Below, in pieces: positions 82 through 41,510 of a stretch of 64,000 bases of DNA. Numbering within the stretch: the first letter of the stretch is position 1; the number at the start of each line of letters is the position of its first letter. The DNA is from Euglena gracilis (taxonomy: Eukaryota). The stretch is from positions 13,510,716 through 13,574,715 of the forward strand of contig CP154954.1 of NCBI GenBank assembly GCA_039621445.1, given 5' to 3'. The notes below the pieces were generated by a model, which was not told where the DNA came from, searched no databases, and worked only from the letters and a program-made list of their open reading frames with translations. The translations under genes and the position numbers were made by a program.

Positions 82-3000
82 GGCTGCTGCTGGGCCCAAA
101 AATGCTAAAGCATTTGCCTCCCAACCGATCACAGCAGTTCATAGCTTTGGGACTGGAAATGACATGTGCATTTTGCCTGGTGTGTCCTGGGGCTGCTGGG
201 CCCAAATTTGCTTTTGGAAAGTGCCTCCCAACACGAAAATGGTGTGGCAAAAGGGGCTACCTGGCCCGAACTTTCCAGCAACGGACTCCCAACCCAAACA
301 AAAGCACAAACTGCGTACCTTGAACCTGAACACCTTGACTTAACTGAATGCCTTGAGTTTTCTGAGATGTCTCTTTTCTGGGAATTCACTTGGATTTTCT
401 GGCCTCAGCCCTTCAAATACCACTTTTTTGTAATCCTTCCGCCGGAACTTCCACCAGTAAAACCGAATGCAAGGCATCAAAACAAAGTCTTCCAAGACGT
501 CTTTAACAAGGTATTCAGCTTATTGCCACCTACAAAGTGAAATGGCAATTTTTGCAGTGAATTAAGCTTCGCTCTTCCTAATTTTTGCTGTAGCCAGCCG
601 CCATCCCACACACCCCTCCCAGGCCAATGCCGACAACCTACGAAGTTAGGCGACTGGCGTTGATCTGGGGATTTTGTTCTGAGGGTGGTTTTTGTTGGGG
701 GGGGGGCGCTGTCGAGGGTGTAATGTACAACAAAACCCAGTTAAAGCGTAAAGCAGCTGCTGCCAGCAATCCCAGCCAATACAACACAAATCCATGACCC
801 CCCCTTGCCCACTCCTGGGCTCATTTGTGACGCCATCTGGGGAACCTGCGGTTTCCACCCAGAAACCACAAGTTATCCCAGAAGGCCCCCCAGAAGCCCA
901 GGCCGGCTCGGGTTTCCAAATGTGAATGCCAGGGCTGGGCCCCCTTGAAGCGGCACCCACAAATTGGAAGGGCCAGGAACCAACAATTTTCAAAATCCAA
1001 AATTGACATTGAAATTTTGACAATTGATTCTGCAAATCTTTTTTTTTGACATGGACATGTTGAACTTTCCTCTGCCCAAATTGTGTGCATTGATCCGAGC
1101 CGAATCAGGTTGTAGGGGGGGGGGCCAATCTGGCCCCCACTTTGTCTTTGCCATTGGCAGATCTGACATTTGCAGGTTTTTCTGTAGCAATTCTTGTACT
1201 CCCCAGCCAGCATGAATCCTTCCCTTTCAGCTACCTTCAGCGCCCAGGGGCCACAGACATTTGTAGGGTCTTTCCCCAGGTACTTGACACACTGCCTCAA
1301 ATTTTCCTTTTCAATCTGCTCCTCCCTGCGCCTTGATTCCTCCATCAGCCAATTCATTGCGCCAAACCTTCCCAAAACCACAGCAAGAAACAAACCAGAA
1401 GTCAAAGCCCCAAAGGGTTCATACTGCTTGCCACCTGCACAAAGTTACAGATGACAGATTGTGGAATGTACAAATTAGGAATCTCTGGCCTGGCTCTGCT
1501 TAATTCTGCTGCACATCTGGGAGCGAATCCCACACTCCCCTCCTCAAAAAGCTTCCCAAGCTATGTCAGCCTTTGGCATCTGGGAGTCGCTCAAAGATGG
1601 GCTTCACCTGTGCCACGTGCCTTTCTCCCGCCCTCGAGCCACACAAGTCGTTTTTCGAGCAATTGCCGACCCCACCATGCCACACCCGTGCATGCCGTGG
1701 CCCACTGCCTGCGGTTTGTGCACAGGGGGCAATTGGTTCCCTGGAGCAATGGCTACCTGAGCAATCGTCGAAGACGTGCCACCAGGGCCTGCCACACAGG
1801 GGGGGGGGGTTTGGGGCAAAAGTTACCTGGTCAATCATCCCGGAAGATGTGCCACCAGGACTTGCCACACAAACCGGCATGCCACTGAAAATTCGACCCG
1901 GAGCTTTCGACAGGGGGCAAAAAGAACAAGGCAATCAGGTTAACACCCGGTCCGCTTAGTCCTCGAGTCGCTTGGCAGCCTTAAGCTTCAGCCTTCTCCT
2001 TCTCCGCTTCCAATTGGTCGTCTCATTCTTCACTCTTGACTTTGGTTCGTCTGCACCTGGCTCAGCCACATCCTTCTTCGGGACTTCCCAGTTGAACGGT
2101 TCTTCCTCGTCGGTGGACTCGCATCTGACCTTTGACAGCTCCTTCTGGCTTGCTTCTTGCACTGCATCACCAGCATGTACACCTGTGGCATGCACAGCTT
2201 GAGCATCTTCTCCATCACCACTTCTGGCATGCAATGGGTCCCCATGGCCCAGCTGTACATCACCACATCCGCCTTCATCAACTTCAATGTCACCATGTCC
2301 AGGGCTGTAATGCCCGATGCTGGCATTACACACCTCAGCATTCCTTGACTTGTCATCTTCAGCATGCACAACTTGGACATCTCTGCAAGGCTCATGAACC
2401 CTTTGTGTAGGGGGGGGGCCAATCTGGCCCCCACTTTGTCTTTGCCATTGGCAGATCTGACATTTGCAGGTTTTTCTGTAGCAGTTCTTGTACTCCCCAG
2501 CCAGCATGAATCCTTCCCTTTCAGCTACCTTCAGCGCCCAGGGGCCACAGACATTTGTAGGGTCTTTCCCCAGGTACTTGACACACTGCCTCAAATTTTC
2601 CTTTTCAATCTGCTCCTCCCTGCGCCTTGATTCCTCCATCAGCCAATTCATTGCGCCAAACCTTCCCAAAACCACAGCAAGAAACAAACCAGAAGTCAAA
2701 GCCCCAAAGGGTTCATACTGCTTGCCACCTGCACAAAGTTACAGATGACAGATTGTGGAATGTACAAATTAGGAATCTCTGGCCTGGCTCTGCTTAATTC
2801 TGCTGCACATCTGGGAGCGAATCCCACAAGGTACCATTGACTGCCAAAAGGATTTGCAACACAAATGGACAATTGAAACTTATTTGCACACTGTGTGGTG
2901 TGGCATAAGGGGCTGCTGGGCCCAAAAATGCTAAAGCATTTGCCTCCCAACCGATCACAGCAGTTCATAGCTTTGGGACTGGAAATGACATGTGCATTTT

Positions 3001-6000
3001 GCCTGGTGTGTCCTGGGGCTGCTGGGCCCAAATTTGCTTTTGGAAAGTGCCTCCCAACCCGAAAATGGTGTGGCAAAAGGGGCTACGTGGCCCGAACTTT
3101 CCAGCAACGGACTCCCAACCCAAACAAAAGCACAAACTGCATCCCTTGAACCTGAACACCTTGACTTAACTGAATGCCTTGAGTTTTCTGAGATGTCTCT
3201 TTTCTGGGAATTCACTTGGATGTTCTGGCTTCAGCGCTTCAAATACCACTTTTTTGTAATCCTTCCGCCGGAACTTCCACCAGTAAAACCAAATGCAAGG
3301 CATCAAAACAAAGTCTTCCAAGACGTTTTTAACAAGGTATTCAGCTTATTGCCACCTACAAAGTGAAATGGCAATTTTTGCAGTGAATTAAGCTTCGCTC
3401 TTCCTAATTTTTGCTGTAGCCAGCCGCCATCCCACACACCCCTCCCAGGCCAATGCCGACAACCTACAAAGTTAGGCGGCTGGCGTTGATCTGGGGATTT
3501 TGTTCTGAGGGTGGTTTTTTTTTTTGGGGGGGGCGCTGTCGAGGGTGTAATGTACAACAAAAACCAGTTAAAGCGTAAAGCAGCTGCTGCCAGCAATCCC
3601 AGCCAATACAGCACAAACCCATGACCCCCCCTTGCCCACTCCTGGGCCCATTTGTGACGCCATCTGAGGAACCTGCAGTTTCCACCCAGAAACCACAAGT
3701 TATCCCAGAAGGCCCCCCAGAAGCCCAGGCCGGCTCGGGTTTCCAAATGTGAGTGCCAGGGCTGGGCCCCCTTGAAGCGGCACCCACAAATTGGAAGGGC
3801 CAGGAACCAACAATTTTCAAAATCCAAAATTGACATTGAAATTTTGATAATTGATTCTGCAAATCTTTTTTTTTTTGACATGGACATGTTGAACTTTCCT
3901 TTGCCCAAATTGTGTGCATTGATCCGAGCCGAATCAGGTGCCATTGACTGCCCAAAGGATTTGCAACACAAATGGACAATTGAAACTTATTTGCACACTG
4001 TGTGGTGTGGCATAAGGGGCTGCTGGGCCCAAAAATGCTAAAGCATTTGCCTCCCAACCCATCACAGCAGTTCATAGCTTTGGGACTGGAAATGACATGT
4101 GCATTTTGCCTGGTGTGTCCTGGGGCTGCTCGGCCCAAATTTGCTTTTGGAAAGTGCCTCCCAACCCGAAAATGGTGTGGCAAAAGGGGCTACGTGGCCC
4201 GAACCTTCCAGCAACGGACTCCCAACCCAAACAAAAGCACAAACTGCATACCTTGAACCTGAACACCTTGACTTAACTGAATGCCTTGAGTTTTCTGAGA
4301 TGTCTCTTTTCTGGGAATTCACTTGGATTTTCTGGCTTCAGCGCTTCAAATACCACTTTTTTGTAATCCTTCCGCCGGAACTTCCACCAGTAAAACCGAA
4401 TGCAAGGCATCAAAACAAAGTCTTCCAAGACGTTTTTAACAAGGTATTCAGCTTATTGCCACCTACAAAGTGAAATGGCAATTTTTGCAGTGAATTAAGC
4501 TTCGCTCTTCCTAATTTTTGCTGTAGCCAGCCGCCATCCCACACACCCCTCCCAGGCCAATGCCGACAACCTACGAAGTTAGGCGGCTGGCGTTGATCTG
4601 TGGATTTTGTTCTGAGGGTGGTTTTTTTTGGGGGGGGGGGCGCTGTCGAGGGTATAATGTACAACAAAACCCAGTTAAAGCGTAAAGCAGCTGCTGCCAG
4701 CAATCCCAGCCAATACAACACAAATCCATGACCCACCCCTTGCCCACTCCTGGGCTCATTTATGACGCCATCTGGGGAACCTGCGGTTTCCACCCAGAAA
4801 CCACAAGTTATCCCAGAAGGCCCCCCAGAAGCCCAGGCCGGCTCGGGTTTCCAAATGTGAATGCCAGGGCTGGGCCCCCTTGAAGCGGCACCCACAAATT
4901 GGAAGGGCCAGGAACCAACAATTTTCAAAATCCAAAATTGACATTGAAATTTTGACAACTGATTCTGCAAATCTTTTTTTTTTGACATGGACATGTTGAA
5001 CTTTCCTCTGCCCAAATTGTGTGCATTGATCCGAGCCGAATCAGGTACCATTGACTGCCCAAAGGATTTGCAACACAAATGGACAATTGAAACTTATTTG
5101 CACACTGTGTGGTGTGGCATAAGGGGCTGCTGGGCCCAAAAATGCTAAAGCATTTGCCTCCCAACCGATCACAGCAGTTCATAGCTTTGGGACTGGAAAT
5201 GACATGTGCATTTTGCCTGGTGTGTCCTGGGGCTGCTGGGCCCAAATTTGCTTTTGGAAAGTGCCTCCCAACCCGAAAATGGTGTGGCAAAAGGGGCTAC
5301 GTGGCCCGAACTTTCCAGCAACGGACTACCAACCCAAACAAAAGCACAAACTGCATACCTTGAACCTGAACACCTTGACTTAACTGAATGCCTTGAGTTT
5401 TCTGAGATGTCTCTTTTCTGGGAATTCACTTGGATTTTCTGGCTTCAGCGCTTCAAATACCACTTTTTTTGTAATCCTTCCGCCGGAACTTCCACCAGTA
5501 AAACCGAATGCAAGGCATCAAAACAAAGTCTTCCAAGACGTTTTTAACAAGGTATTCAGCTTTTTGCCACGTACAAAGTGAAATGGCAATTTTTGCAGTG
5601 AATTAAGCTTCGCTCTTCCTAATTTTTGCTGTAGCCAGCCGCCATCCCACACACCCCTCCCAGGCCAATGCCGACAACCTACGAAGTTAGGCGGCTGGCG
5701 TTGCCCTGGGGATTTTGTTCTGAGGGTGGTTTTTTTGGGGGGGGGGATGCGCTGTCGAGGGTGTAATGTACAACAAAACCCAGTTAAAGCGTAAAGCAGC
5801 TGCTGCCAGCAATCCCAGCCAATACAACACAAATCCATGACCCCCCCTTGCCCACTCCTGGGCCCATTTGTGACGCCATCTGAGGAACCTGCGGTTTCCA
5901 CCCAGAAACCACAAGTTATCCCAGAAGGCCCCCCAGAAGCCCAGGCCGGCTCGGGTTTCCAAATGTGAATGCCAGGGCTGGGCCCCCTTGAAGCGGCACC

Positions 6001-6968
6001 CACAAGTTGGAAGGGCCAGGAACCAACAATTTTCAAAATCCAAAATTGACATTGAAATTTTGACAATTGATTCTGCAAATCTTTTTTTTTTGACATGGAC
6101 ATGTTGAACTTTCCTCTGCCCAAGTTGTGTGCATTGATCCGAGCCGAATCAGGTACCATTGACTGCCCAAAGGATTTGCAACACAAGTGGACAATTGAAA
6201 CTTATTTGCACAGTGTGTGGTGTGGCATAAGGGGCTGCTGGGACCAAAAATGCTAAAGAATTTTCCCAACCGATCACAGCAGTACACAGCTTTGGGACTG
6301 GAAATGACATGTGCATTTGCCTGGTGTGTCCTGGGGCTACTGGGCCCGAATTTGCTTTTGGAAAGTGCCTCCCAGCCCAAAATGGTGTGGCAAAAGGGGC
6401 TACGTGGCCCGAACGTTCCAGCAACAGACTCCCAACCCAAACAAAAACACAATCTGCAGAACACTGTCACATAATCTGTTCCAAATGCCTTTCAACCATC
6501 CAACACCCAGCTGCAAATTACATCACCAAGCTGCAGCATGAGCAGGGTGTCAATCAGCAGCACATACCACATCTTACTGCAGGTTCTGGAGGTTGTTGAT
6601 CCTCCTCCTGCTGCTGCTGGCAGCTCCAGCTGCATTTCAATTCTAAATGTCCTCCTTCGATGGCTCATTCACTGATACTTGAACAGCATGCCTTGGAAAA
6701 CCAGAATACCTTGAGTATTCTGAGATGTCTCTTTTCTGGGAATTCACTTGGATTTTCTGGCTTCAGCGCTTCAAAATACCACTTTTTTGTAATCCTTCCG
6801 CCGGAACTTCCACCAGTAAAACCGAATGCAAGGCATCAAAACAAAGTCTTCCAAGACGTTTTGAACAAGGTATTCAGCTTATTGCCACCTACAAAGTGAA
6901 ATGGCAATTTTTTGGTTGAATTAGGCTTCGCTCTTCCTAATTTTTGCTGTAGCAAGCCGCCCTCCCAC
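82..6968. repeat. Tandem array of a ~1107-bp unit (about 4 full or near-full copies plus diverged partial copies)
   Basis: CCGAGCCGAATCAGGT recurs at ~1095, 3924, 5031 and 6139 (period 1107-1108 apart from the insertion at 1111-2828). The same short ORFs recur in each unit. The last unit is diverged and interrupted at ~6450-6700. Confidence 0.92.
1111..2828 (-). mobile_element. Non-autonomous LTR element (TRIM-like, 1718 bp) with self-complementary PBS
   Basis: Near-identical ~423-bp direct repeats at 1111-1534 and 2406-2828 with TGT...ACA ends. PPT GAGGAGGGGAG (minus strand, 1535-1545) abuts the 3' LTR. 4-bp TSD AGGT at 1107-1110 and 2829-2832; the empty site CAGGTACC is seen in other array units. 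No pol motifs. Confidence 0.88.
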
Positions 6969-7746
6969 ACTGGTATGGTTGCCAAGATGCCCCCAAAGAA
7001 CCTGCCAGTTGTTAGTACTTAGTAGCACCAATGGTGCAACCATGTGGCACGTCAACCCCGCCAGCGCGTCCGCAGCACCACGAAAACATTTATGGTTCAC
7101 AAAATTTGCATGGTACATATTGCACATTAAGTGGTGTGTTCCATGCGCATTTGCAAAGTTTACCGAATAACACACTTGGTGCAACCTCTGGAGTGTCTGC
7201 AACATGGCGCTATTTCGCGCCCGGGCCCAACCTCAATGAATACCACCGATGGGCCACGGGTTGCTCGGAAAGATTTTCAAGGAGCCCTCGCAATCGCGAA
7301 CAAGGTAATGTCCGATTGGGACGGTGACCACACAACGCATGGAAACAATTTTTCCGCGACTGAAAATAATACTGGGATTTGAAGGGACCAACCCAAGACA
7401 GAAACCCGGAGGTATTTCAAGATGTAGTTTATTGATTGACCACCAAAGGATGAAAAAGAACGCGCCAGACAATTGGTCATTCGCGGGCGCATTTCTTTGA
7501 GGACTTGGTCGATCAATATGCTTCATCATGCTCTAGTCTAGTTTCCAGAATCAATCTGGAAAAAAAAATGGAGACAATCACGTCCCCCGGACCGCAAATG
7601 GAAGCCGATCCACTTTTGGTACTCAAAGTGGCTTTGGTTGGCAGCCGAAGTGGATGAGTTTGGGGAAACACAAACCAAGAAACGACTTGATGCAGTATTT
7701 CTGTGCTACATCCCCAAAATCATTAAAGGAATTGACCGCAGCAGGG

Positions 7747-7956
7747 TGTGTGCGGCGGACGGCAGAGCCTACGACAGTGGTAGGTGTGCAACAGCAGGAC
7801 CAGTGTGGTCCGGATAGATTATTGGTTAAGGTGTTGGCCTCACACGCGGGAGGTCGTGCGTTCGAGACCCAGGTCCCCCCGTGTGAGTCGCGGTCGATCA
7901 CGTACGGGCAGACGGCATACCGCGGGGATCGATAGGCTCACCTTCGTCCGTGTACG
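7747..7956 (+). mobile_element. 5' LTR of a tRNA-containing TRIM (truncated copy A; internal part continues to ~8069)
   Basis: Homologous to 11082-11271, 11607-11815 and 18725-18932. Followed directly by PBS TGGTAGCAGAGGA, then ~100 bp matching the internal region of copy B. Confidence 0.85.
7807..7880 (+). pseudogene. tRNA-Val(CAC)-derived segment inside an LTR
   Basis: A-box-like TAGATTATTGG, anticodon arm GCCTCACACGC, variable loop GAGGTC and B-box-like GTTCGAGACCC. The acceptor stem is imperfect. Confidence 0.75.
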
Positions 7957-7969
7957 TGGTAGCAGAGGA
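7957..7969 (+). promoter_or_regulatory. Primer-binding site, initiator tRNA-Met type
   Basis: TGGTAGCAGAGGA is complementary to the 3' end of an AGCAGAG-type tRNA-iMet and lies directly after the LTR. Confidence 0.85.
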
Positions 7970-8069
7970 GCCCGACCAATGGCACACGAAACCGGACATT
8001 AGAGCCTGACCCCACGACATGTGGAAGGCAGAGACAGATGCGCCGAGTCTTGAGAAACTGGAACTCCTA

Positions 8070-9396
8070 GGCGAGCGGCAGGGCGACGATCGGTCCCCCC
8101 TACACCTTCGGCGGCCACTTCGGTGTGCCTGCCGGCAGGTGGAGATGAAGAACACCTGCAGAGTGAAGGCGATGGTGAAGGGGCGGATAATGTCCTCTGC
8201 GCTGCTCTTCCTACTCCTGCTCAGCCCCAACCAGACGACGCACCCGCAGGGGATGTACGTATGGTTTCACCGCCTGTGCCGTAGGCTGAACCACAAGTCG
8301 ACGTGGCTGGTATGGTTGCCAAGGATGCTCCCAAAGAACCTGCCAGTCCCTCAGTTCGCCCCTCATTACGAGGCCGTGTGCTCGGCGCCGTGTTGAATGG
8401 CATTACTACCGTGGCCGCTGCACTAACGCCACGAAGTGGAGGTGCGGAATTAAGCCCCGCCTCTGAGGCTGTGGAGGTACCAGATGTTCTTGACCCTGCA
8501 CATCCATCTCCTGCAACACTGCAACCACTGACAGGGGATTAACCACAACCGACAGAGACATCCTTCGCACCTGATACAATCAAAGAACCTCCTGCAGCAC
8601 CTGCGTCAACAGTCACGTCACGGAGGATTAACCTCCAGTGGCAACAGCAGCCGTCGAGATCGAAGTGAGGGAAATACCCCACGACCACCGACACCGCGCA
8701 GGATCCCAGGAGTACCGAGGACGATGGCAAAGTTTCTGGGAATGCCAGCAGCTGTGGAAGCACCGATTCTGGTGTCGACAACAGTACCGCGTCCCGTCGG
8801 GCACTATGAAACTGCACGGGCGGCTGCCGGCAGAGCAGTACCAATAACGCGCGTCACCTCCTCGGGGTGTCATGCGACATGAGTAGGCCGCCCACATCGG
8901 CTCTTGCCCCAGCAGTGCAGGGATCCAAGCCGGGTGCTACACCCTGTTAGCCCCCTGCTAAAGGCAGCGATGGGAAACCACCACCGAAAGACGGCACTGG
9001 TGGCCAGACCGAGTACAGCCGAAAGGCAACGACGGTGCACGACTATTCGGCCGTCGATTCGTTGGGATACGGCGAGAGCAAATCAAAAGGTAAGGCTCGT
9101 GACGGCCAAGCACAATCGTCTGCCGCAATGGCGACGGGCGAGGAGCAGGACGAAATTGCTTCGCTCCCTGCGCCTCCGGATGCCCAGCTCTGTGTCAAGG
9201 ATATCTTGACCGGCCTAGGAACCGTAGAAGCACGGACGAAGCAGATGGCTGCTATTCAGCACCAGAAAGGGTCACTGAATAGATGGATTCAGCAGTTGTT
9301 CGTCAAAGGAGAGCCCTTCCACTATGCCCAATAGCATACTTTGACGTTCTGGAACAGCCACTAACCCCGAGTACTGGCATTGTTCTTCAGAGAAGA
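8070..9396 (+). pseudogene. Decayed 5' part of cargo ORF-X (homolog of 29070-31310), split by a nested insertion
   Basis: Translation LNRWIQQLFVKGEPFHYAQ*HTLTFWNSH*PRVLALFFRED aligns with LNKWIEPLFFNDQKHNYYVRHIWRFYNARSPRVFAQYLGET. The upstream part is Pro/Thr-rich. Confidence 0.75.
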
Positions 9397-9880
9397 CGTG
9401 TAACAGGCAGCCGTAATGCACACGTACTGTGTATGCAGGTATAAGACTACGGCCAGATTTAGTTCTCAGCCTCATACACAGTACTTTGTTGGATGGCATT
9501 CCTAAAGATGGCCGACGTCCTGAAATAGTCAGCCACGCTCTATAGAGCAAAGCCTTATTTGGTTCTTCTCTCCACAGGTATTATTATTTATTCTCTATTC
9601 TCTGTTCTTTATTCTCATCTCTTTATTCCCTGTTGTTTTCTTCGGTTGTCATCATGTCAAATTCGCTCATTCAAAGTGCTGAAAGGACTGCCAAATCACC
9701 TGTCGTTTGTTTGTCACCTACAAAAGAGCTTTCTTGCCTGCCTTGTGCTTTGCTTGTTAAGCTTGTTAAAAGGAAAGTCAACGTTTCAGGTTCTTTTTGT
9801 GTCTTAATGCCAATTTTAGTTTCCTAAGTAGGCGGCGCAACCAGAGGTGAAAGCGAGGAAAGCAGGGTTGGACGTACACT
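9397..9880 (+). repeat. 5' LTR (CGTGTAAC...GTACACT)
   Basis: Direct repeat of 15661-16128, with many substitutions. Confidence 0.85.
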
Positions 9881-10559: not shown

Positions 10560-11081
10560 CACTTCCCCACCCCAAATCCGACTGGACAAATACCGAAATC
10601 AAAAATGATGTGGGGGAGTTGGTAAATATTTACAACATCCTGTTACCGTGAATCAGAGAATTGTCGCAAATCTCCCAGTGGAGCACCCCCTTATGTGTAA
10701 ATCTCCCATGTACACCAATATGTAGCAGACTGCGCTATGACACCTAAAAAGGTTTTGTATTTTGATGAAAACAACCAAAAGGTCGTATTAAACAAGCTGG
10801 ATTTCCTCTAGGCTTATGTCCGTGATGTTGGTGAATTCCTTTAATGAGGTTCGGGATGTGGCACAGAAATACTGCATCAAATTGTTTCTTGGTTTGTGTT
10901 TCCCAATCCTCATCCACTTCGGCTGCCAACCCAATCCACTTTGAGTTGCGGGATTGTGTCTCACTCATGGCTTCAGTCACTTTTTGGAAGTGTTGTGGCA
11001 AATGTTCTTGCAAATGTGTCTCAAAACCTTGGCGCAAATTTACCAAATCCACACTGGTGGAATGAATTGACCGCAGCAGGC
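10560..11081 (+). pseudogene. gag-like coiled-coil ORF remnant containing a 235-bp inversion
   Basis: VHQYVADCAMTPKKVLYFDENNQKVVLNKLDF matches VQQCVADCATALNKVLQFDEDNQKHVFTKLEY of ORF 59940-60512. The next homologous block lies on the minus strand at 10834-11068. Confidence 0.72.
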
Positions 11082-11815
11082 TGTGTGCGGCGGACAGCGT
11101 GTGCAACACCAGGACCAGTGTGGTCCGGATAGATTATTGGTTAAGGCGTTGGCCTCACACGCCGGAGGTCGTCTATTTGAGACTCAGGTCCCCCCGTGTG
11201 AGTCGCGGTCGATCACGAAAGGGCAGAGGGCCTACCGCGGGGATCGATAGGCTTACCTTCGGCCGTTTACGTGGTAGCAGAGGATCCCGTCCAATGTCAG
11301 ACGAAACCGGACATTAGAGCCTGACCCCACGACACGTGGAAGGCGGAGACGGATGCGCCGAGTCTTGGGAAACTGGAACTCCTACACCGTTCCAAAGTCT
11401 CAAACCGATTCAAAGGGTGACGCTTCAAGGCGACAGAGCACGTAGAAGAGTACAACACGTAAACTGCCGGCTATAGTAAACCCGAGATGCAGAGGCCGGC
11501 AACCTGGTGTTGCAGTACTTGTGTGAGGCACTATCCAACTCCGTCCGTGTGAGGCATACCCCGAGATGCAGGGGCCACGGCCACGGTGACGCCCTTGGGA
11601 GTGGAGTGTGTGCGGCGGACGGGATGGCGTACGACACACTACAGTGGTAGGTGTGAGACCAGTCTGGTCCGAATAGATTATTGGTTATGGTGTTGGCCTC
11701 ACACGCGGAAGGTCGTGAGTTCGAGACCCAGGTCACGCCGTGCGGCTCTTGGTCGGTCCCATACTGGCAGAGGGCATACCACGGGGATCGATCAGCGCAC
11801 CCTCGGCTGTATACA
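11082..11815 (+). mobile_element. Complete TRIM (734 bp) with tRNA-Val-derived LTRs
   Basis: 5' LTR 11082-11271; PBS TGGTAGCAGAGGAT 11272-11285; PPT GGGAGTGGAG 11597-11606; 3' LTR 11607-11815 (TGT...TACA). TSD CAGGC/CAGGG (CAGGG at the equivalent flank of copy A). Both LTRs carry GCCTCACACGC and a B-box-like motif. Confidence 0.85.
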
Positions 11816-12949
11816 CAGGGCCAGCAGCGCAGCGGCGCGCTCCGGGTGGCCAACAGGCCACACCCCCACCTGTGCCCGTTGTGTCTGCCTTGCCGGCCAA
11901 ACCAGCGCCAACGGCGCAGCCGCCCTGCCGGCACCAGCAAAAGCAGCGCCAAAGGCGCAGGCAATGTCAGTACCGCAAACCCTGGAAGCACCAACGGTTG
12001 CTCCATCCCAAGACTCTATCACGAAAATACGTAGTGCGCCACCACCTGCTGAGCAGTAATTTGCAGCTCATAGAACCACACCAGCGCAGTATCGCGAATG
12101 TTCGGACGAAAACCTCATGCGGATAGCCACCGAAAGAGCAGCTCAAAATAAAATGATTGAACTGCCTAGAGGCCAAACCCTCCCTAATAATAGTCCACCG
12201 CTATTGGCGGATATGCAATATCAACCTGCCGCATACCCAGCATCCAAAATGGCATATGCCCTACAAGAACTGCTCGGACGAGCAACTGATATGAATCCCG
12301 CCTTCTAGCGTCCAACCTCAACCCCTACAAATAAAATGAAGCCAGAAAGGAACTTTCCCGAGTACGATTGGGATTAGGTTATGGCAAAGGTGCACCCAAG
12401 CGAGCACCTGCTGCACGCCAGAAAGACCAAAGCAAAGGCCAAAAAAAGCCTATTCCGTGACTCATATGAGAATGATATGGAAGCTCTATTATTATTATAT
12501 TATTCAATGTGATCATGATCTCGATTTCGATGGCATATGCAGGTTACAAAATTAACTCATTCTACCCGTCCTCGGGTCTTCTCCTGTCATCCCTGTGACA
12601 AAGCAGCTCGATAAGGAGCGTTCGCGTCAGTTCCACCATGATAGAACTTTGTATGTCTTTGAAGGTAACGTCGTCACTGGTCCGATATTAGGTGCCAGTA
12701 TTCTGCCATGTCTGGTTCGTGGCGGGATACCCCACACAAGATTTCAGTAGGTTCGTTAACTCATGTGGTTACCCTTACCTCTAGTGTGGCCTAGAAGACA
12801 GATAACGTACAGATAAAGACCAACTGGGAGTCCCTGGTGATGCACCACCACCCGTATTCGGACGTGGTCGGCTTTACCGGGGGACAGCATATTTTTGCAC
12901 CTATCAGAGCAATTGCGCGAGAAGGCCCTGTGCCAACAACTACAGCGGA

Positions 12950-14800
12950 TCGCCCACATTCACCTACACTCTCACCGGAAACAGCTGAGGACAGTGAACA
13001 GTGTGACGCAGAGGGCGGTCAAGTCCGAATGAAACGCTTGGAGCACATCTCTGCTGAGGAATCTAAGTATGCAGATGTCCCAATAGCCCTACTGGGCTCC
13101 AGGACAACTCTGCCTCACGTGGGAGATGAAAGCCATAGAGCTAAGTCCCCAACACCCGAGGCCGAACGGCCGCTGGTACCACCGGTACCACACGTCTCCT
13201 TACCTAGAGTGCCAATGGCACCACCCACAGAACCCGTCACATCAACGAAATCTCCCACTGCAGTTTTCGCTGGTGTGCTACAGGGATTGTCAGCAGTAAT
13301 GTCTGCTGTCTTTGCTGTGCTGACCCCTCGGGGTTCCCCAGCACCATCGCCCCCTGAAACATAAATGGGTTCCTGCTGAGGATAGCAGCTCAACAGAAGC
13401 ACAGGCTGCCGCCACAGCTCAAATGGAGGAAGATGTGCCAGGTGCTAAGCCAGGAGCTCAAGCCTGGCCAACAGCAGAAATGCAACAACCTCCTGCCAAG
13501 CCGGCATCCCAGACACCACCAATGCCGGAAAGACTACTGCCTCCGGCGGATCCCCGAAAGAATACTGATACGGCAAGAAAACCAGGGCCCCTAAAGTCAA
13601 AGCCCTTGCCGAGGGCACTTGCGAGCCCGCTGAACGGCGGCAGGATGACAAGCCACCGCCTCCTGACGCAACTGGCTCTGGTACAGGCAATAGTCCCACT
13701 ACCACATGACCAGCAATGTGGCTGAAACATCCACAGGAACTAAGTGCAAACCTACCATCACATCGTTTCTGTACAGTGTCCCTGACGAGGCCGAAGAGCA
13801 GCCTTGGACACAGGACGTACTTTCCAGAGTCGACGCCCTGCAAAAACGTCGGGCTAGGATCAACATGATCCGCAACAGCAGTGGTCCCTGGCAGAACAAG
13901 TGGATCAATCCCTTGTCCCAGAAAAAACAACTTGGTGTTTTCACCACCAGCCACTTTTGGCTTTTTTGGAATGTGAAATCTCCAGGGGTATCCGCCCAAT
14001 GTTTTGGAGGAATTTTGCCCCGTATTTCCAGGAAAATGACCGACAATTGTGGTTATGCACAGCATGCCACAGGCTTTGCAACGATGTGCTCGCCGTGCAT
14101 ATATACACACGCAACCCAGATAGCATAAGCTTCCACCATGATGTATATGTGTGCAATTGCGCAGTCTTTATTTGCAGTGACTTACTGGCATGGTCAAGAA
14201 TGGACATTTTCTGCTGGAAAGAAAATAAATATGACAAGGACATACCTGTCCGTTACATCGACTGCCTAACAAGGCAAAATGTCTGGCTTCGTGCCGATGG
14301 CAGTATGACTAGAGGCTTTCCGGAAAACGAAGACCATCTAGTCGAAATTAAAAAAGCACTGTAAGTCCCAACTGTATATTTATCAGTTCGCAAAATTCAA
14401 CGGTGCACACCGCTATATGACAGGCGGAATCACCAAATATTTTCATTTCGACAGGGCAGTTGTCCGGCTCACAGTCGACTCTACTGGAAAGGCCAAAGTG
14501 CCATACGCTTTTCAGATTTCCAATTAGGATTGGGTGATATACCAATTGTTTCAGGAACATCTCTGCAGAACTGGTCACACTATCTTTGCTGCCTGACTAA
14601 CCACCTGCGGCATATGACCTCACTTGTACTGAGCGGGTAAGAGATATCTTATGACCATTTACCATCCGAGGACGAGTCACAAACTGTCACTGCATGGCAG
14701 ATACTGCCCCCCGATGATAGAGATTATTGAAAGTCCCGAAGGCACTTATGATCGTTGATCAAGCCTGGCTCCGAAGCCGATTTTGTTCCGGAGATCAAGC
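12950..14800 (+). pseudogene. Frameshifted copy of cargo ORF-X
   Basis: NKWINPL, WLCTACH..AVHI, FHHDVY, DIPVRYIDCL and WLRADG..ENEDHL align in order with 29070-31310. Multiple frameshifts and stops. Confidence 0.8.
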
Positions 14801-15660
14801 CAGCCAAAAGAACTGCCGTCTGTGCAATCGATACTCCAGGCCGACACACCACAGGTCTATTGTCCCTGTGCTGACAGTTCTGTCAGACCTATACTGCCTG
14901 TATGCAGTATCCGCACTAGGCACATCTGCCAGTATGTAGTTGTTATAGGTACGTCGCCCCTCTCTTTTTGGCTACCGCCGTGGTTACCGAGGTATAAGTC
15001 TCTGGGCATACCCCATCAACAACACGTTGTCCGCTGCGCCCTGTGAATCCTTCACAGAGGTATGCAACGCCAGTAGGAAGACGCACAGTGTACAGCGCGC
15101 ACACCGTAAGAATAGTTACCAACTTGTCACTTTTTGGGCCTGGGGCCCCATAAGACTTCCGGGCTGCAAAGATTCTGCCTAAAGCCTTTTGACCAGCCCC
15201 ACACACCTCTCTCATTTCCCCCAATGGGCAAAGTGGCCGTCGCGGCAGTTGATTTGGTAGGTAGATCTTTCTTCCTGATCCGGTATGACTGGACAGGTGC
15301 CCCTCCTTCCACACCCTACACTGCATTCCCTTCAGATTACGGAATGAGACCTCCCTGAGTGTCATGGGCACACCCCAATCAGGGTAGATGGGACTTTCTG
15401 GAAAAGAAACCTTCCAGCCACATTTTCCCACGGTCTCTTCCATTTCCACCCCTTTGCCGCAATAGGTAGGCAACGCATGAGCAGTTAACCCCTTTTGTAT
15501 GTTTTTGTATTATTCATCACTTTCTTTCCCCACACCCCTTGTGACAGGAGAACCAAAAGCCTCATACGGCTCTGTGGCAGATCCCTGCCACCAGGACTGT
15601 GTCAGGCAATCCTACTGGCCTGGACAAACAGGGAAATCGGGAACAGCCCTGGAGGGGGAA

Positions 15661-16128
15661 CGTGTACCAGGCAGCTGATTTACGGTGTATGAAGGTGTAA
15701 AACTATTGCCAGATATAGTTCTGAGCCTCATACACAGTACTTTGTTGGATGTCATTCCTAAAGATGGCCGAGGGCCTGAATTAGGAACCCACGATCTATA
15801 GAGCAAAACCATATTTGGTTCTCCTCTCCACAGTTAGTATTCTTTAATCTCTATTCTGTTTTCATTATCGTCTATTCTTTATTCTCCGTTTTGTTCTTCA
15901 CTTGTCTTCAAGTAAAGTTTGTTCATTGAAAGGCCTGAAACGACTGCAAATTAATCGGCGTTTGTTTGTCAGCTCCAAAGAGCTTTCTTGCGCAGGATTG
16001 TGCTTTGCATCTTAAGCTTGTTAAAAGGGAAGTCAGCGCTTCATTTGATGTATATCATTTTTCTCTACTTTCTTAAGTAGGCCGCGCACCAAAGGTGAAA
16101 GCAAGGAAAGCAGGGTTGGACGTACACT
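15661..16128 (+). repeat. 3' LTR (CGTGTACC...GTACACT)
   Basis: Preceded by a PPT; direct repeat of 9397-9880. Confidence 0.85.
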
Positions 16129-16133
16129 GAAGA

Positions 16134-17070
16134 CTGTGTGGGGGATTTCCAGCACGGCACGTCTTTTGCATGGACGTGCACTTTGTGCCACTATGTGCGC
16201 CACAACCACCTCCTTGTGCATGTGTGCAAGCGGCAAGTGCAATCTCGGTCGTCCCGCCACAGGGCATATGTGCTGAACTGCGTGGCTGTCGTATGTAGCG
16301 AGTGTCTGAACCTCTGCAAGCACAGCTTTAACTGCTCCTAGAGTGAGAATGCTCACGGCAGGGAAATCCCTTCCCTGTGCATCAACTATGTGGGTGCCAA
16401 GTTCGTGCAGACAGCCGGTAGCCGGTGGCACGGTCACCACCACTGTCGCCCATCACTGGGAGACGTTGGAGAAGTAGAAGAAGGAGTACAAACAGTTGGA
16501 AGGCTGCCTGAAGCACTCCGAATTCAAAAATGCAGAAAACTACAACCACACGGGAATGCCCCTGAGTTCCAGATCGACGGTTGGGCAATGCGTCTCGCGG
16601 TCGAGGATGGTGCCATGGTAAAAATGCCTTACCACTGGTCCGACCGGGAAACAACGGTCCCCGTCGTTATCCATAGGTCATAATGGCGGACACGCCCTGC
16701 CGTACTGGCCACTCAAAGAACACCACTTGGTGCACATGGGCTGGTTTTAGGTTGTATGTATTACGGCACCACACGGCAAGGACTCGGACAGCGAACTGGA
16801 CGTACGACGTCAAACTCAAGCAGTATCCGGGGATCACCCACCCGGCGTGTGCAAACGACCCCGGATGAATTATATCATCTGGCGGGTGATGCTGACTAGA
16901 ATTGTCTGGGATCAGCTCCAACGGTATCGTCAGCATCATACTGTATGTACCAGGGAGAAGCATACGGACCGTTGGATCAAGGAGTGGGATACTCCAGCCG
17001 TTGATGTCTCCAGCCGTTGATGTCAACAACCCGTAGCACAAAAGCATCTGAAGCGAAGTCACTCCGCCGC
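16134..17070 (+). pseudogene. Decayed 3' part of cargo ORF-X (continuation of 8070-9396)
   Basis: AWTCTLCHYVRHNHLLVHVC...AVVCSECL aligns with TWLCTVCHNIRNSTPAVHVC...ALICGDCL. FQIDGWAMRLAVE matches FQTDSGGIRLAVE. Confidence 0.78.
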
Positions 17071-18027
17071 GTTCTCCGCCCCGGTCGAGGACCCATTAGG
17101 GGGCCGTTAACACCACTGCTGCCGTGAAGTGCGCTTAAGCCTAGCCGATAAAGGCAGGTGAGAGAACTGAGAGTACCAATGCGGTCTTTTCCAGCGCATT
17201 TGTCAGTTATTCGCCTGACAGCGTGGTATTACACCGCACTATGTACCCATATGGGGGAGAATGACTTTCCTCTACCCTGTTTCGGGTCGTCCCCCGAACA
17301 CCAACCCTTTGCGTTGTTTGCCGCCAGTAACTCTCAACCGTGGTGCTGCAATGTGCAGGATTCTGTGCGCATGCACACAGACGTTTCTCAACTCTCGTGC
17401 ACGTGTGACGCACGCAGCGCACAGGGCCGACAGCCTACTTTCCTTTCCTTTTCTTTTCGGCCATTTGACGCCATAAGGCTGTCCAACAGCACAACTTTCC
17501 TTTTCCAAAGCCACCCCCGCCCACCACTCCTATCTACTTTCCCCCAAGGGCAAAATGATGGGTTAGGCAGTTGGTTTTGTAGAATATGTTTTCTTTTGCG
17601 TGGTCAGGTTCGACTTGCCATGCCCCATGCCCACATCTGACTGGTCAGAGGTCCCTTCCTTTTCCACAACATCCATGTAGTTTTTCCTGGAATGCCCGTG
17701 TACCCAACCCCAAGTGCCTTGGGTACACCCAAATTAGTTGGATGGGTTTGCTTGGCTAGGAAACCTGTCAACACCATTTTACCCCTGATGGACTAAAATA
17801 TACTTCATCCTTAAGTCACTGCAGAGTAATTGAAACCATTTTGCGTGTTTTCGTATTTTTGGGTTCCACTATTCTCTCCCTCTAATGAGTGGATCCTCGT
17901 GCGACGGGAAAGGGGATCCTGAGAATGCGTCAGGGTGCACCTCACACAGACCAGGTCTGTGTCCGGAGTCCTTCTGAACAGAATGCCTGGTTCAGAAGGT
18001 AGATCGGGCATAGCACTGGGAGGGGGA

Positions 18028-18328
18028 TGTGTACCAGGGGTATGCTATCTGCTCTTCCGATGAGGAAGTCAGTATGAGAGCAGATCCTATTAGGATCTTC
18101 TCAGCCCCCTTTCTCTCTCCACAGGTGGTAGTCTGCTTATATCTTTTATAAAGTGTGCACCATAAAATCAACTGTGATTTTTCCTTTTGTATCCTTCCCT
18201 GTGCTTTGCGTCTGCCGTGCGGGGAGCTAAAAGGTGTTTTTCTGCTCCTCTCATTTTCAGTCGCCTATGTAGGTGCGACAAGATAAAGCGAGGCTTTTGC
18301 GGGCAACAGGGAACATGAGATGTACACT
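18028..18328 (+). repeat. 3' LTR of the host ORF-X family element
   Basis: PPT GGGAGGGGGA directly upstream; ends TGTGTACC...TGTACACT. Homologous to 58800-59127. The upstream region matches 15540-15660 and 31580-31693. Confidence 0.8.
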
Positions 18329-18724
18329 AGATTCCCCAAAGACAGGGCATCCCTTCAAGAAGATCAACAGCATACCCTGAGGGCCCTAGGGGTGAAAACG
18401 GAACCCTGGTGAAGCCATCTGGGCATATAAATTACATGGATGAAAAGTCCGGATAGACCCTCCTGCTCCTGAGGTTGTAAATAAGTCGAATATGACAGCA
18501 GAAGAATGTTCCCCAGCAACTTGTTAATTAATCAAAACTGGCGTTCAGCCCCCGTGGGTAAACCCACCAAAATTGTCAATCCATCCAAAAAACGGAGCAA
18601 ACTTTGACACGAACCAGCAGAAACAATCCTGCAGGATTACAAAAAAATCTGGTTCAATAAAATTGGTGGAGAATTTGAACACCCAACACCTAATCCCATG
18701 GTTTTTTGTTTCGAAAGCAGAAGG

Positions 18725-18932
18725 TGTGTGTGGCGGACGGGATAGCCTACGACGGTAGGTAACCCGCGCGTAGTACAAAGCCGAGTATCGCTCGAGTAAC
18801 TTATTCGGTAAGGTGCTGTGCTCACACGCAGGAGGTCGTGGGTTCAAGACCCAGGCCCCGCCTTGTGAGTCCTGGTTAATCCCGCACGGGAAGATGGCGT
18901 AAGAGGGATCGACCGGCGCGTGCAACTACGCA
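18725..18932 (+). mobile_element. Probable solo LTR of the tRNA-containing TRIM family
   Basis: Starts TGTGTGTGGCGGACGG and contains GCTCACACGCAGGAGGTCGTGGGTTCAAGACCC. Flanks are GAAGG/CAAGG. No PBS follows. Confidence 0.72.
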
Positions 18933-19120
18933 CAAGGACGAAGACACTGTTTGGCCGGACCTTATGCATGGTTTCCCGCTTGGGTACGTGTCATGGCGAG
19001 TAGTAGGAGCTTCCTCACCGTGGCCGTCCAACAGCTAGTGGTGAAAACCTACATACAGAAGGGAGGCAGAAAAAGTGGAGATTAATAAGCGGCTGAAGGG
19101 AACTGAAGCGGGAGTTCTCA

Positions 19121-20400: not shown

Positions 20401-21739
20401 CGTTCAGGTGCCACAGAATCTGCCGGGCAACGAATGCCGCACGCAAAAACGGGCAAACTTTTCAAGGCTTGGGAAAAAAGCAAAGCCACAACACAGAGGA
20501 AAGGTTCAGAACTCCATCTTGTCATTGTCGAGGGGGGAATGGTTGCAGCGGCTCCATCGACAACTTGGACATCTCAGAATTAAGCATCAGTCTCCTCTGC
20601 CTTCTTAGACTTGATTGAGTGGGCTTCAGACGAACTTCTGTCTTCATCTCATCTTCCACATCACATTGCTGAACATTGCATTCCACATCCTGCAGCATGT
20701 CATCTCTGGCAATGTCTTCGTCAGTCTGCACCCCAATGTCAGAACTTGTCATCACACATTGCCTCCCATGGCATTTACAGCCGGGGTACAGTCGCAGCAG
20801 GGGCTCGTCAGTGAACTGTCTTCCATGAACTCTCTTGAATCCATTCTGACTTCTCCTTGATGTGCACAGCACACATAGGCATTCCAAGCAGTAAGACCAT
20901 TCATTCCTCAAGGCCAAACTTGCACCTTTCACACATGCCAGCTTCAGGCCATGGCAACTGCACAAATGGCTGAACCACACACAGACACAGACAGAGATCT
21001 TGCTGGCGGGCATCCCACCTTGACTTCTCTGGTGGAGGTTCCTCTGGGGGCGAACCACTGATTGTACAGGGCTGAATACACTGATTGTGTCGGACTGAGT
21101 GCTCCTCCGCCGCTATTCCCTGGTCTGGCATGTGCCAATCAGACGTTCCGAAACTTGAACTTTTTGCTTTTTTCCCCTTGGGTGCCAGTTGCCAAAATAA
21201 TTTTAATAGCACGAAGCAGTCCCTAAAATGCAGAACAATGCATTGCCAGGATGTGAATTAGGATCTTCCTCTCCGCGCGACTGTCACAGGGTGTTGGCTC
21301 TCACTGGTTCAGCTCAGCAGGGAAGGGGTGAAACCCCAAAGGCACTCCCCTTGGAGATCCCAGTGACACTCCCTCAGGGGTGGGGAGGGTCCACTGGGAG
21401 GTTCCTCCTTGGAAATGATGGCCCAGTTCCGGCCACAGGGGGGGGCCAGAATAGGAATAAAACTTCCGACACAAGTCGGCACGAGGAGCCAAAAAACAAC
21501 ACTACGCCGGAAACTGGCCCGGCTCGGGGGTTTCCGCCTCACCCCAGCACTGCCGTGAAACATGGTAGCACAGGATCGAAACAATCCAAGCATGTTATAG
21601 GCATAACTGACTGCCATTTTAGGCCAAATAAGGTGCAACCGAACTGGCCCTGCCTTTTTCAATGACTTTCACGAACTCTGTGTGCAATTTTTTGGTCAAA
21701 AACTCAGCAGCCCTCTGGGATTCAAACTCCAAATCCGAG

Positions 21740-28784: not shown

Positions 28785-29069
28785 AAAAATTTGTCGGATG
28801 GCAAAACTTCCGTCTGCGACCACGTATAAAACTCCCTGAACCCCAACCTGCGGAGTCCGAGACAACACAGTCTGCAGCTGAACAACCTCCAACGGCTGCA
28901 CAATCTACAACGTCAACAGCCAAAGCAGCAGCGAAGTCTGCAACCAAACGTTCGGAAGAACGTTTGGCACAACCTCCACCTACACCTACCATGTCTGTGG
29001 AACACATTCCCGTACACTCTTCAGACTCTTCGTCGTGTTTCCTCTTCTGGGTCATCCAGCGATGAGGAA

Positions 29070-31693: not shown

Positions 31694-32125
31694 TGAGTAC
31701 CAGGCAGCCATTCTGCCATAGCACTGTGTACCAGATACAATGGGCTACGGCCTACAATCTGGCTACGGCCGGGCTGTACACAGTGGCATGGTTAAACCGT
31801 AAGACAAAGAGAGAATCTCAGAGCTAGCGAAAGATTAGCGAAAGTAACTGGTTCCTAATTCAAGATTATTGGGTTTAGTGCTTTGCAATTCTCTTTTGGA
31901 ATTCTGAGGGCGAAGTCCCATTTGTGTACAAGTTTTATTTCTTTCTTTTACAAAGATCGAAAGAGCAAAAGTCACTTTCAAATAAGGGACTGCGGTCCCA
32001 CCAATTCTTCTGCTTGTGTGCTTTGCATTCAAAAGTGGAAAAGGGAAACAAATTTTACTGTTACTCCCCCCACGGGCTTTTCGGGAGGAAAGCATAAGTA
32101 GAAAAGCCGGGGTGGGACGTACACT
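31694..32125 (+). repeat. 3' LTR of an ORF-X family element
   Basis: PPT GGGAGGGGGA upstream; ends TGAGTACCAGGCAGCC...GGACGTACACT, as in 15661-16128. Confidence 0.75.
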
Positions 32126-33117
32126 CATCACGTCGGACCGGGGCCCCCACTTCGGGGTGGCCTGGTGCAGGGCCATGTGCAAGGCTGGGGGTGCGCCACG
32201 CCTTATCCCAGGCGTACCACCACGAAGGCAACGCCCGCTCGGAGGTCCTCGGCGCACAGATCCAGAAGCGGCTGAAGAAGCTGAAGGCGGCGGAGGGCGT
32301 GGCGTGGCCGGAGGCGCTGCCGCGAGCCCTGCAGACCCGGCAGGTGCTCTTCGGCCGCGAGCGGTGGTACGACGGGTTGCCGTACCAGCCGCCCACGCAG
32401 GCCGAGGACGCAGTGGCCTTCTTCGAGCGCATGCAGGACATCGATCGTCGTGTCGCAGACATCTTGAACGAGGAGCACAGCAAGACAGCCGAGACGGTCA
32501 ACAAGCGGCGGAAGGAGCTGCCGGAGCTGGACATCAACGACAAGGTCTGGTACCTCCGCCCGTGCACCCGCTCTGGCGAGAAGCTGGAGACTTACTGGAT
32601 CGGGGCGTGTGTGGTGGCAGAGCGCACCAGTGAGCACACGTACGTGCTCCAGATGGAAGACGGCCGGAGGTTGGTGGCCCACCCATCACAGCTGAAGGGC
32701 TACCACCACGATCCGGCCCTCATGGGGCCACCGCTCCGTCTCTTCCACTTCCACCAATCCAGGGGGGAGGAAGGTTCCCGGCTGGACGGGTGGGAGGTGG
32801 AGGCGATGATCACCCACCAGCGCGATGCTAACAGCAACCTCAAGTTCCTCGTCAAGTGGCTGGGGTACGAGGAGAAGACGTGGGAGCCGCTCAGGCACTT
32901 CTTCTACCGGTACGCCTCCCTGATTGTGTCGTACTTCGTCGAACACGACAGCATGGAGGACATCTTGAAGTACCGCTCGAGGTTCCCGGAGGAAGCCCAC
33001 ATCGCCATATGCCACGGCGTGGAGACGGAGAAGGATAAGGAGAAGGAGTTTGGGATGTCCTGGGAGGAGCCACCAGAGGAGTGGATGTTGCAGGAAACCG
33101 AGGACGGAGACGTATGA
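32126..33117 (+). pseudogene. Ty3/Gypsy integrase C-terminal half plus chromodomain
   Basis: ITSDRGPHF and SQAYHHEGNARSE (integrase core), KVWYLRP..KLETYWIG (GPY/F-like), and WEVEAMITHQ..LKFLVKWLGYEEKTWEP (chromodomain). Confidence 0.88.
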
Positions 33118-40857: not shown

Positions 40858-41510
40858 AACCTTCCTGGGGGAGGGGGTCCCGAGAGCACCCCCTACCTGA
40901 CCCAGTGGCCAACGGAGTCAGAACCCCCGGAGGACGATGGGGGGGGGGAACCATGCGGGAAGCAGGGCTGTGGGTGAAAACCCTAACGGCAGGTTTCGGG
41001 TTCACCTGTGAAAACCCCACCCTGTGACCAGAATGGTGTGATCAACGGGAGGCATCCGGCGAATAGTCCTGGGGGAGGGGGTCCCGAGAGCACCCCCTAC
41101 CTGACCCAGTGGCCAACGGAGTCAGAACCCCCGGAGGACGATGGGGGGGGGGAACCATGCGGGAAGCAGGACTGTGGGTGAAAACCCTAATGGCAGGTTT
41201 CGGGTTCACCTGTGAAAACCCCACCCTGTGACCAGAATGGTGTGATCAACGTGATCGCCTTCCCAGAGGGAGGCATCCGGCGAACCTTCCTGGGGGAGGG
41301 GGTCCCGAGAGCACCCCCTACCTGACCCAGTGGCCAGCGGAGTCAGAACCCCCGGAGGACGATGGGGGGGGAACCATGCGGGAAGCAGGGCTGTGGGTGA
41401 AAACCCTAACGGCAGGTTTCGGGTTCACCTGTGAAAACCCCACCCTGTGACCAGAATGGTGTGGTCAATGTGATAGCCTTCCCGGAGGGAGGCATCCGGC
41501 GAACCTTCCC
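40858..41510. repeat. ~210-235-bp tandem repeat, 3 copies, inside the LARD
   Basis: CCTGGGGGAGGGGGTCCCGAGAGCACCCCCTACCTGACCC at ~40865, 41068 and 41289. Confidence 0.88.

Follow-up and report, generated by a model that had tools for sequence, protein, structure and literature searches.

A probable Helenus-type miniature LTR retrotransposon, now dead, with a tRNA-Val(CAC)-like segment in its LTRs

Introduction

The question raised by this locus is whether a short stretch of DNA bounded by two similar repeats (positions 11082-11815 of the window, by which we mean the whole 64-kb stretch that was analysed) is a non-autonomous miniature LTR retrotransposon (TRIM), and whether its LTRs are built around a gene for tRNA-Val(CAC), as the original prediction for this DNA proposed. 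The first description of TRIMs with tRNA-derived sequence in their LTRs dates from 2024, when they were named Helenus (Kojima 2024, Biology 13:119, PMC10886601), so the class that the prediction had named is in print. Apart from that paper, no other description of the Helenus/TRIMp3 class was found in the literature, and the remaining reports were papers that cite it.

According to the sections of Kojima 2024 drawn on here (PMC10886601), Helenus elements occur in rust and agaric fungi, in six animal phyla and in Selaginella. They are 311-1263 nt long, and their TSD measures 5 bp in the fungal and plant elements and 4 bp in those of animals. Their primers are varied, and the fish families, which have the 4-bp TSD, use His, Leu or Lys primers. 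The same sections state that most Helenus LTRs are tRNA-derived, keep the promoter boxes and encode no working tRNA, and that Pol III transcription is unproven for Helenus too. Fish Helenus LTRs are aligned there to human tRNA-Val-CAC (Figure 2c of that paper), and the locus studied here was predicted to resemble the same tRNA.

Results

Architecture of the element

The features of the locus are collected in Table 1. The 734-nt stretch consists of an LTR, a primer-binding site (PBS), a non-coding core, a polypurine tract (PPT) and a second LTR, and the TRIM structure that had been predicted was borne out in each of its parts, with the LTR pair, the PBS, the PPT and a 5-bp duplication of the flanks all at the expected coordinates. 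In terms of the TSD, the prediction held for the presence of 5-bp flanks and failed for an exact match, as one of the five bases differs. The segmental duplicate described below has retained the flank CAGGG, which is the right flank of the full element, and the original TSD was therefore probably perfect (5/5). The flanking 5-mers of all copies are similar purine-rich words (CAGGG, CAGGC, CAAGG and GAAGG), which makes the TSD weaker evidence.

Table 1. Positions of the features of the element and of its related copies in the window
Feature	Position	Strand	Remarks
Left TSD, CAGGC	11077-11081		Agrees at 4/5 with the right CAGGG; paralogous flank 7742-7746 is CAGGG
5' LTR, 189 nt, starting TGTGTG	11082-11270	+	Missing 20 nt compared with the other copies; B box decayed
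tRNA-like stretch in 5' LTR	11123-11195	+	A box TAGATTATTGG at 11130-11140; anticodon loop CTCACAC at 11154-11160
PBS, TGGTAGCAGAGGAT	11272-11285	+	1 nt past the 5' LTR; complement of the initiator tRNA-Met 3' end
Internal region, 311 nt, non-coding	11286-11596	+	No Pfam family in the scanned ORFs that overlap it
PPT, GGGAGTGGAG	11597-11606	+	Purines at 9/10 positions; adjoins the 3' LTR
3' LTR, 209 nt, TGTGTG...TATACA	11607-11815	+	From repeat finding, within-window BLAST and MAFFT
tRNA-like stretch in 3' LTR	11667-11739	+	A box at 11674-11684; loop at 11698-11704; B box AGTTCGAGACC at 11718-11728
Right TSD, CAGGG	11816-11820		Compared with the left flank
Segmental duplicate of the 5' part	7726-8069	+	Flank 7726-7746 (21 nt), LTR 7747-7955, PBS 7957-7969, internal region to 8069
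Diverged fourth LTR copy	18725-18932	+	Flanks GAAGG (18720-18724) and CAAGG (18933-18937), alike at 4/5; perfect B box GGTTCAAGACC

The two LTRs of the element are 79.9% identical (K2P 0.236). The 5' LTRs end in TACG, while the 3' LTR ends in TACA. The divergence of about 20% between the LTRs, together with the loss of 20 nt and the ruined B box in the 5' LTR, indicates that the element is dead.

Repeat finding, BLAST and MAFFT alignment identified four copies of the LTR unit of about 200 nt, all on the same strand and starting at 7747, 11082, 11607 and 18725, and no more in the 64 kb. The claim that four diverged LTR copies share a common core was confirmed, in that CTCACACGC is kept in all four.

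Primer-binding site and iMet-primed LTR elements

The prediction that the element is primed by tRNA-iMet agrees with the sequence of the PBS. Its 14 contiguous nucleotides are the first 14 of an 18-nt PBS that was designed in PMC1797187 as a complement of the human tRNA-Met(i) 3' end, and they also agree with an iMet reverse primer in PMC7744096. A PBS of this human type is compatible with an animal-like initiator tRNA in the host, which the sequence alone would not prove.

Matches to the 12-mer of the PBS are not scattered over the window. When one mismatch was allowed, five matches were found compared to 0.28 in shuffled sequences, and the three exact ones (7957, 11272 and 36606) each lie 0-1 nt past the end of an LTR. 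One of the matches with a single mismatch, at 21563, directly follows the sequence ...AACA. The exact match at 36606 is part of another LTR element, which is 7.9 kb long and lies at 35307-43242. In it, the PBS, the same as that of the miniature element, directly follows the LTR-terminal CA. The LTRs of this larger element (35307-36605 and 41945-43242) are 99.2% identical over 1311 aligned nt, and its flanks (GGGGG on both sides) form a G-run that is consistent with a 5-bp duplication. The exact PBS at LTR ends and the near identity of the LTRs at 35307-43242 argue that iMet priming is habitual for the LTR elements of this genome and that such elements have been mobile recently. An element of this type would be the sort of helper that a TRIM needs.

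No intact reverse transcriptase or integrase was found in the 64-kb window. A chromodomain integrase at 32121-33114, of which the C-terminal two-thirds are kept, is the only pol remnant in it. For this fragment, 18 relatives with 37-48% identity were found, all of them metagenome proteins, and the taxa in the protein atlas were mixed. Pfam scans of the ORFs of the window, performed with 8 and then with 150 of them, returned the Chromo domain and otherwise only weak matches below threshold. An ORF of 826 aa in the window had no match in the protein atlas, and its C-terminal 386 aa had no homologue.

The LTRs contain a tRNA-like segment but no tRNA gene

A tRNA-like stretch of about 73 nt begins 41-61 nt inside each LTR and makes up about one third of it. 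Its parts follow each other as in a tRNA, with an A-box-like TAGATTATTGG, a stem that closes the 7-nt loop CTCACAC, and a B box. The stem has 5 bp in the copy at 11123-11195. The loop places CAC (Val) at the anticodon position, and the predicted Val anticodon arm is therefore present, as a Val(CAC)-type loop within a tRNA-like stretch. In terms of the promoter boxes, A- and B-box-like motifs had been claimed for every LTR, and this was true only in part: both boxes stand at tRNA spacing in two of the four copies, and the B box of the 5' LTR is decayed. Box A reads TAGAT...TGG in three copies, with one mismatch to TRGCY...YGG. The GGTTC of box B is exact in one copy of four (GGTTCAAGACC at 18725), agrees at four of five bases in two (CGTTCGAGACC at 7747 and AGTTCGAGACC at 11607) and is lost in the 5' LTR, which has TATTTGAGACT.

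The distance from the start of the A box to the start of the B box is 44 nt, which is the spacing found in tRNAs. A pattern of an A box, 30-36 nt and a B box occurs in the window only at 7815-7868 and 11674-11727, compared to 0.08 occurrences in 50 dinucleotide shuffles; this pattern is a loosened form of a generic consensus, and the two matches lie in homologous copies and count as one event. Within the LTR, conservation is highest in the tRNA-like core, where the mean column identity is 89%, compared to 68% for the alignment of the whole copies with their flanks.

Further resemblance to tRNA-Val was seen in published fragments. The 11-mer CCTCACACGCG stands in a list of tRNA fragments, and the excerpt of the same list used here contains a 5' Val-CAC fragment that ends in the overlapping bases CCTC (PMC12025293). 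When the fragments were compared by hand with the copies, 18-19 of 24 positions agreed for the 24-nt fragment and, ungapped and in register, 21 of 34 for the 34-nt 5' fragment.

The stronger claim, that the LTRs are built around a tRNA-Val(CAC) gene, was rejected. ARAGORN called no tRNA at the default threshold or at thresholds lowered to 90%, and at 80% its calls were inconsistent. No match in the window reached the Rfam gathering score, which is 29 for tRNA. When matches up to E = 10 were admitted, the Rfam tRNA model recognised 11123-11191 (16.7 bits, E = 1.8) and 18795-18863 (13.5 bits, E = 4.7), that is, two copies of four, and it found no match in the copies starting at 7747 and 11607; these E-values are corrected for 4227 families, although tRNA was the sole family under test. 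By the covariance model, then, there is no significant tRNA match, and the tRNA part of the original prediction formally falls. The secondary structure leads to the same result. In a canonical cloverleaf, 60.7% of the cells pair, compared to 27-52% in slid controls, and the pairing of the acceptor stem is just 46%. There were no compensatory pairs among the four sequences, which is uninformative as to covariation. Between the 5' half of the stretch and a human tRNA-Val primer from the literature, 17-18 of 30 positions agree, which is the background level, as seven positions in the window reach 18. The honest reading of these data is that the stretch is the relic of a decayed tRNA or of a tRNA-derived SINE, which keeps promoter-like boxes and no longer folds as a tRNA.

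Proposed mode of action and the role of the tRNA-like segment

The active ancestors of this element would have used an RNA that starts inside the 5' LTR and that is reverse-transcribed from an initiator tRNA-Met annealed to the PBS at 11272-11285. Plus-strand synthesis would then start from the PPT, and a presumed helper, an autonomous LTR element, would provide in trans the integrase that inserts the DNA and creates the 5-bp duplication seen in the flanks. Priming by tRNA-iMet, the start at the PPT and integration in trans are taken here from the established biology of LTR retrotransposons. The LTR segment itself would descend from a tRNA with a Val-CAC-like loop or from a tRNA-derived SINE. 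Its likeliest role in the active ancestors would be that of an internal RNA polymerase III promoter, for which we put the chances at about even. If transcription was by Pol III, the U3/R border would fall some 10 nt upstream of the A box, near 11113-11123 in the 5' LTR and near 11657-11667 in the 3' LTR.

The 734-nt element lacks a run of four T residues, and downstream none follows before 12892, so that transcription of this copy by Pol III would meet no nearby terminator. By our own arithmetic, about 0.8 such runs are expected for an element of this length and composition, and their absence is insignificant either way.

A tentative alternative is that the element is a TRIM in which the tRNA-like stretch, an old SINE or tRNA fragment, is a mere passenger, and that its active copies were transcribed by Pol II. 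The absence of a T4 terminator in or near the element would fit with this, and so would the state of the boxes, as the A box has A in place of the usual C and the B box begins with CG or AG in two copies and is ruined in one. In addition, the 41-61 nt of conserved LTR that precede the tRNA-like part could hold a Pol II promoter. However, a passenger would not be expected to be the best-conserved part of copies that have diverged up to a K2P of 0.36, or to hold its A-to-B spacing at 44 nt, and the boxes are likewise conserved in the Helenus LTRs reported in the sections of Kojima 2024 considered here (PMC10886601).

It is rather unlikely that the likeness of the LTR to a tRNA is a chance resemblance. 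Every covariance-model score is below threshold, the 5' half does not rise above background against the tRNA-Val primer, and the four copies, being homologous, amount to one event. A chance origin would nevertheless have to bring an A box, a stem-closed CTCACAC loop and a B box together within 73 nt in the order and at the spacing of a tRNA, and the Rfam E-values carry a penalty for thousands of families when one family was being tested.

Related copies and local rearrangement

The region at 7726-8069 reproduces the 5' part of the element. Compared with 11082-11384, its LTR is 92.1% and its internal part 93.0% identical, and the first 99 nt of the internal region recur in it at 7970-8069. Past 8069 no similarity was detected (alignment score 44, compared to a shuffle mean of 44.1). 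The upstream flanks are also alike, at 19 of 20 aligned positions (7726-7745 and 11061-11080). Because the 21-nt flank is shared, 7726-8069 is best seen as a segmental duplicate that was made after the LTRs had diverged, and not as a separate insertion. In terms of sequence identity, the LTR pair of the element is less alike than 7747-7955 and 11082-11270, which may point to a chimeric or recombinant origin; the shared flank and the duplication explain why 7747-7955 is closer to the 5' LTR than the two LTRs are to each other. The order of events would thus be insertion, decay up to the present LTR divergence (K2P 0.24), and then duplication of the 5' part with its flank to 7726-8069. An inverted repeat of 117 nt (7621-7737 and 10830-10946, 90% identity) also indicates that the area has been rearranged.

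The copy at 18725-18932 is the most distant of the four, with a K2P of 0.34-0.36 to the others. There is no PBS beside it, and as it also has flanks of its own that agree at four of five bases, it is probably a solo LTR. In the 64-kb window the family is represented by a single full-length copy, a duplicated fragment and a probable solo LTR.

Very improbable is a reading in which 11082 and 18932 are the two ends of a single degenerate LTR element of about 7.85 kb, with 11607-11815 as an unrelated LTR that is nested in it or was brought in by recombination. A purine-rich run, GAAAGCAGAAGG, does lie just before 18725, and the CAAGG after 18932 agrees at four of five bases with the ancestral left flank CAGGG. 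However, the PPT of the short element adjoins 11607, the near pair of LTRs is less diverged (0.24) than any pair that includes 18725-18932, this last copy has its own flanks, and the scanned ORFs between the two LTRs (11816-18724) are without a Pfam match.

Least probable of all is that there is no LTR element and that two tRNA-derived SINEs inserted in one orientation, at a distance of about 340 nt. In favour of this, the units have tRNA-like A and B boxes and are just 80% identical to each other, and 11082-11384 is nearer to 7747-8069 than to 11607-11815. Against it, the tRNA-like part lies within the unit instead of at its 5' end, an A-rich or simple-repeat tail is absent, and a 14-nt iMet PBS lies 1 nt past the first unit and a PPT adjoins the second. 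The 5-bp duplication brackets the pair, and the second unit, 11607-11815, taken as a solo unit has flanks (TGGAG and CAGGG) alike at only two of five bases. The likeness of 7726-8069 takes in 21 nt of flank, as expected of a duplication and not of a SINE subfamily.

Beyond the window, degenerate patterns of the LTR core found no relatives in the metagenome contigs and prokaryote-genome contigs that were scanned. RNA reads on 10980-11900 numbered 0, 0, 3 and 4 in four runs; all were 90-95% alike to the locus, and six of the seven lay only partly on the stretch. These few reads do not bear on the expression of the locus itself. As a faint hint of further members, reads of this likeness would stem from other, diverged copies of the family. 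A dinoflagellate spliced-leader motif had no match in the window.

Discussion

Taken as a whole, we consider it probable that 11082-11815 represents a non-autonomous miniature LTR retrotransposon of the Helenus type, in a copy that is now dead and that would have moved and decayed as set out above. With Helenus, as described in the sections of Kojima 2024 used here, it has in common the two short LTRs, the PBS and PPT, the short TSD and the lack of coding capacity. Both also have in their LTRs a tRNA-like stretch that encodes no working tRNA, with A- and B-box-like motifs that in the present element agree with the Helenus boxes (TRGCY...YGG and GGTTC) in part. The element, 734 nt long with a 189-nt and a 209-nt LTR, also falls within the reported size range. 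The difference is that the combination of a Val-CAC-like core, a PBS for the 3' end of iMet and a 5-bp TSD is not described in those sections.

The relationship to the published families was examined at the level of short words. Six words from the LTRs (tgtgtgcgg, gcggacgg, attattggtt, ggcctcac, ctcacacg and cctcacacgc) and the PBS 10-mer tggtagcaga had no occurrence in the Kojima consensus file (DataS1.fa), where words split by the breaks at column 70 could be missed. One fungal Helenus family in that file shares just the first 9 nt of the PBS. As none of the six LTR words occurs there, the element, by this comparison of k-mers, probably represents an undescribed family. Judged from sequence and from the 2024 survey, it would probably be filed best as a new family of the known class Helenus and not as a new class.

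Comparison with other short elements helps to place it. With Cassandra and Ajax, the element would share the design of a Pol III promoter derived from a small RNA inside the LTRs of a TRIM, which is putative in this case, but the LTR sequence of those elements is derived from 5S rRNA, whereas here it is tRNA-like. Membership in Cassandra/Ajax was rejected, as Rfam found no 5S rRNA match in the window or in the copies, either at the gathering score or at E-values up to 10. The tRNA-derived SINEs (SINE2) are likewise short, non-coding and repeated, and contain A and B boxes in a segment related to tRNA. In contrast to them, the tRNA-like part is internal here, there is no LINE-type or A-rich tail, and two units enclose a PBS and a PPT, with a fixed 5-bp duplication. 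SINE2 membership was thus rejected too, given a tRNA-like head that lies 41-61 nt inside the unit, the missing tail, and the PBS and PPT found here. Ordinary TRIMs of the Pol II type resemble the element in architecture, size, iMet PBS and 5-bp TSD, but differ in that the LTRs studied here have a tRNA-like core as their best-conserved part.

A more far-reaching proposal is that this is a TRIM lineage of the Pol III type that arose independently in a eukaryotic group for which none has been described, having captured a tRNA-Val(CAC)-like SINE in its LTR and been moved by iMet-primed elements. We regard this as possible, though doubtful.

TRIMs with Pol III promoters blur the boundary between SINEs and LTR elements and lead to inflated predictions of tRNA genes. 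For annotation, the LTRs of 11082-11815 should be treated with this warning in mind, as they hold a tRNA-like relic and no tRNA gene. With this copy, one more probable family is added, with a combination of Val-CAC-like core, 3'-iMet PBS and 5-bp duplication that is unlisted in the sections of the 2024 survey consulted here. As the copy is dead and nearly alone in the window, its value lies mainly in its use as a seed for genome-wide searching, and each further lineage of this kind helps to test whether such elements have originated repeatedly by the capture of SINEs.

Rearrangement around the element

Two arms of an inverted repeat are located just upstream of both copies of the 5′ part of the element (the decayed 734-nt miniature LTR retrotransposon), that is, upstream of the element itself and of its segmental duplicate. 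This 117-nt repeat points to a duplication with inversion. A direct duplicate of approximately 480 nt was also found within the rearranged area, but it has no relation to the element. The coordinates of these and the other features of the window are listed in the table.

Features in the window
Feature	Positions	Description
Tandem array	86-6970	unit ~1.1 kb, 5-6 copies, 97-98% identity
Inverted repeat	7621-7737 + 10830-10946	117 nt, 90% complementary
Short hairpin	7796-7812 + 11655-11671	GACCAG, 2-3 nt, TGGTC
Direct duplicate	9396-9880 + 15660-16128	~480 nt, 79% identical, offset 6.25 kb
Open frame	28830-31307	826 aa, cysteine-rich C-terminal half
Integrase, C-terminal part	32121-33114	chromodomain-bearing (Ty3/gypsy-type), 5′-truncated
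LTR element	35307-43242	7.9 kb; LTRs, PBS, PPT, G-run flanks
Internal ORF of LTR element	36263-39409	1049 aa
Tandem pair	45202-47368	unit 1086 nt, 2 copies, 99.7% identity

In the LTR copies, the short hairpin sits right on the 5′ boundary of the tRNA-like segment, and three of the four retain it. Another LTR-end-like site was observed at 21556-21590, where the sequence ending in GAAACA is followed immediately by TGGTAGCACAGGAT, an initiator tRNA-Met primer-binding site with one mismatch.

Other repeats and coding remnants

The tandem array carries an extra 267-nt piece (6704-6970), and each unit of the tandem pair contains a 70-nt inverted repeat. The 18 relatives of the integrase fragment, with identities of 37-48%, are all unnamed metagenome proteins. 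For the 826-aa open frame, no Pfam family was assigned and the atlas search returned no match, while its C-terminal 386 aa had no homologue among the 5.8 billion proteins searched.

A young LTR element

The 7.9-kb LTR element is young, and its two 1.3-kb LTRs are 99.2% identical. The LTR-terminal CA is joined without a gap to the primer-binding site TGGTAGCAGAGG, the polypurine tract is GAGTAGGGGGG, and the element is flanked by G-runs (GGGGG/GGGGG). The Pfam search gave no match to reverse transcriptase or integrase, and the protein encoded by the element's internal ORF is repetitive and proline/glutamine-rich. The whole has the appearance of a large non-autonomous (LARD-like) element.
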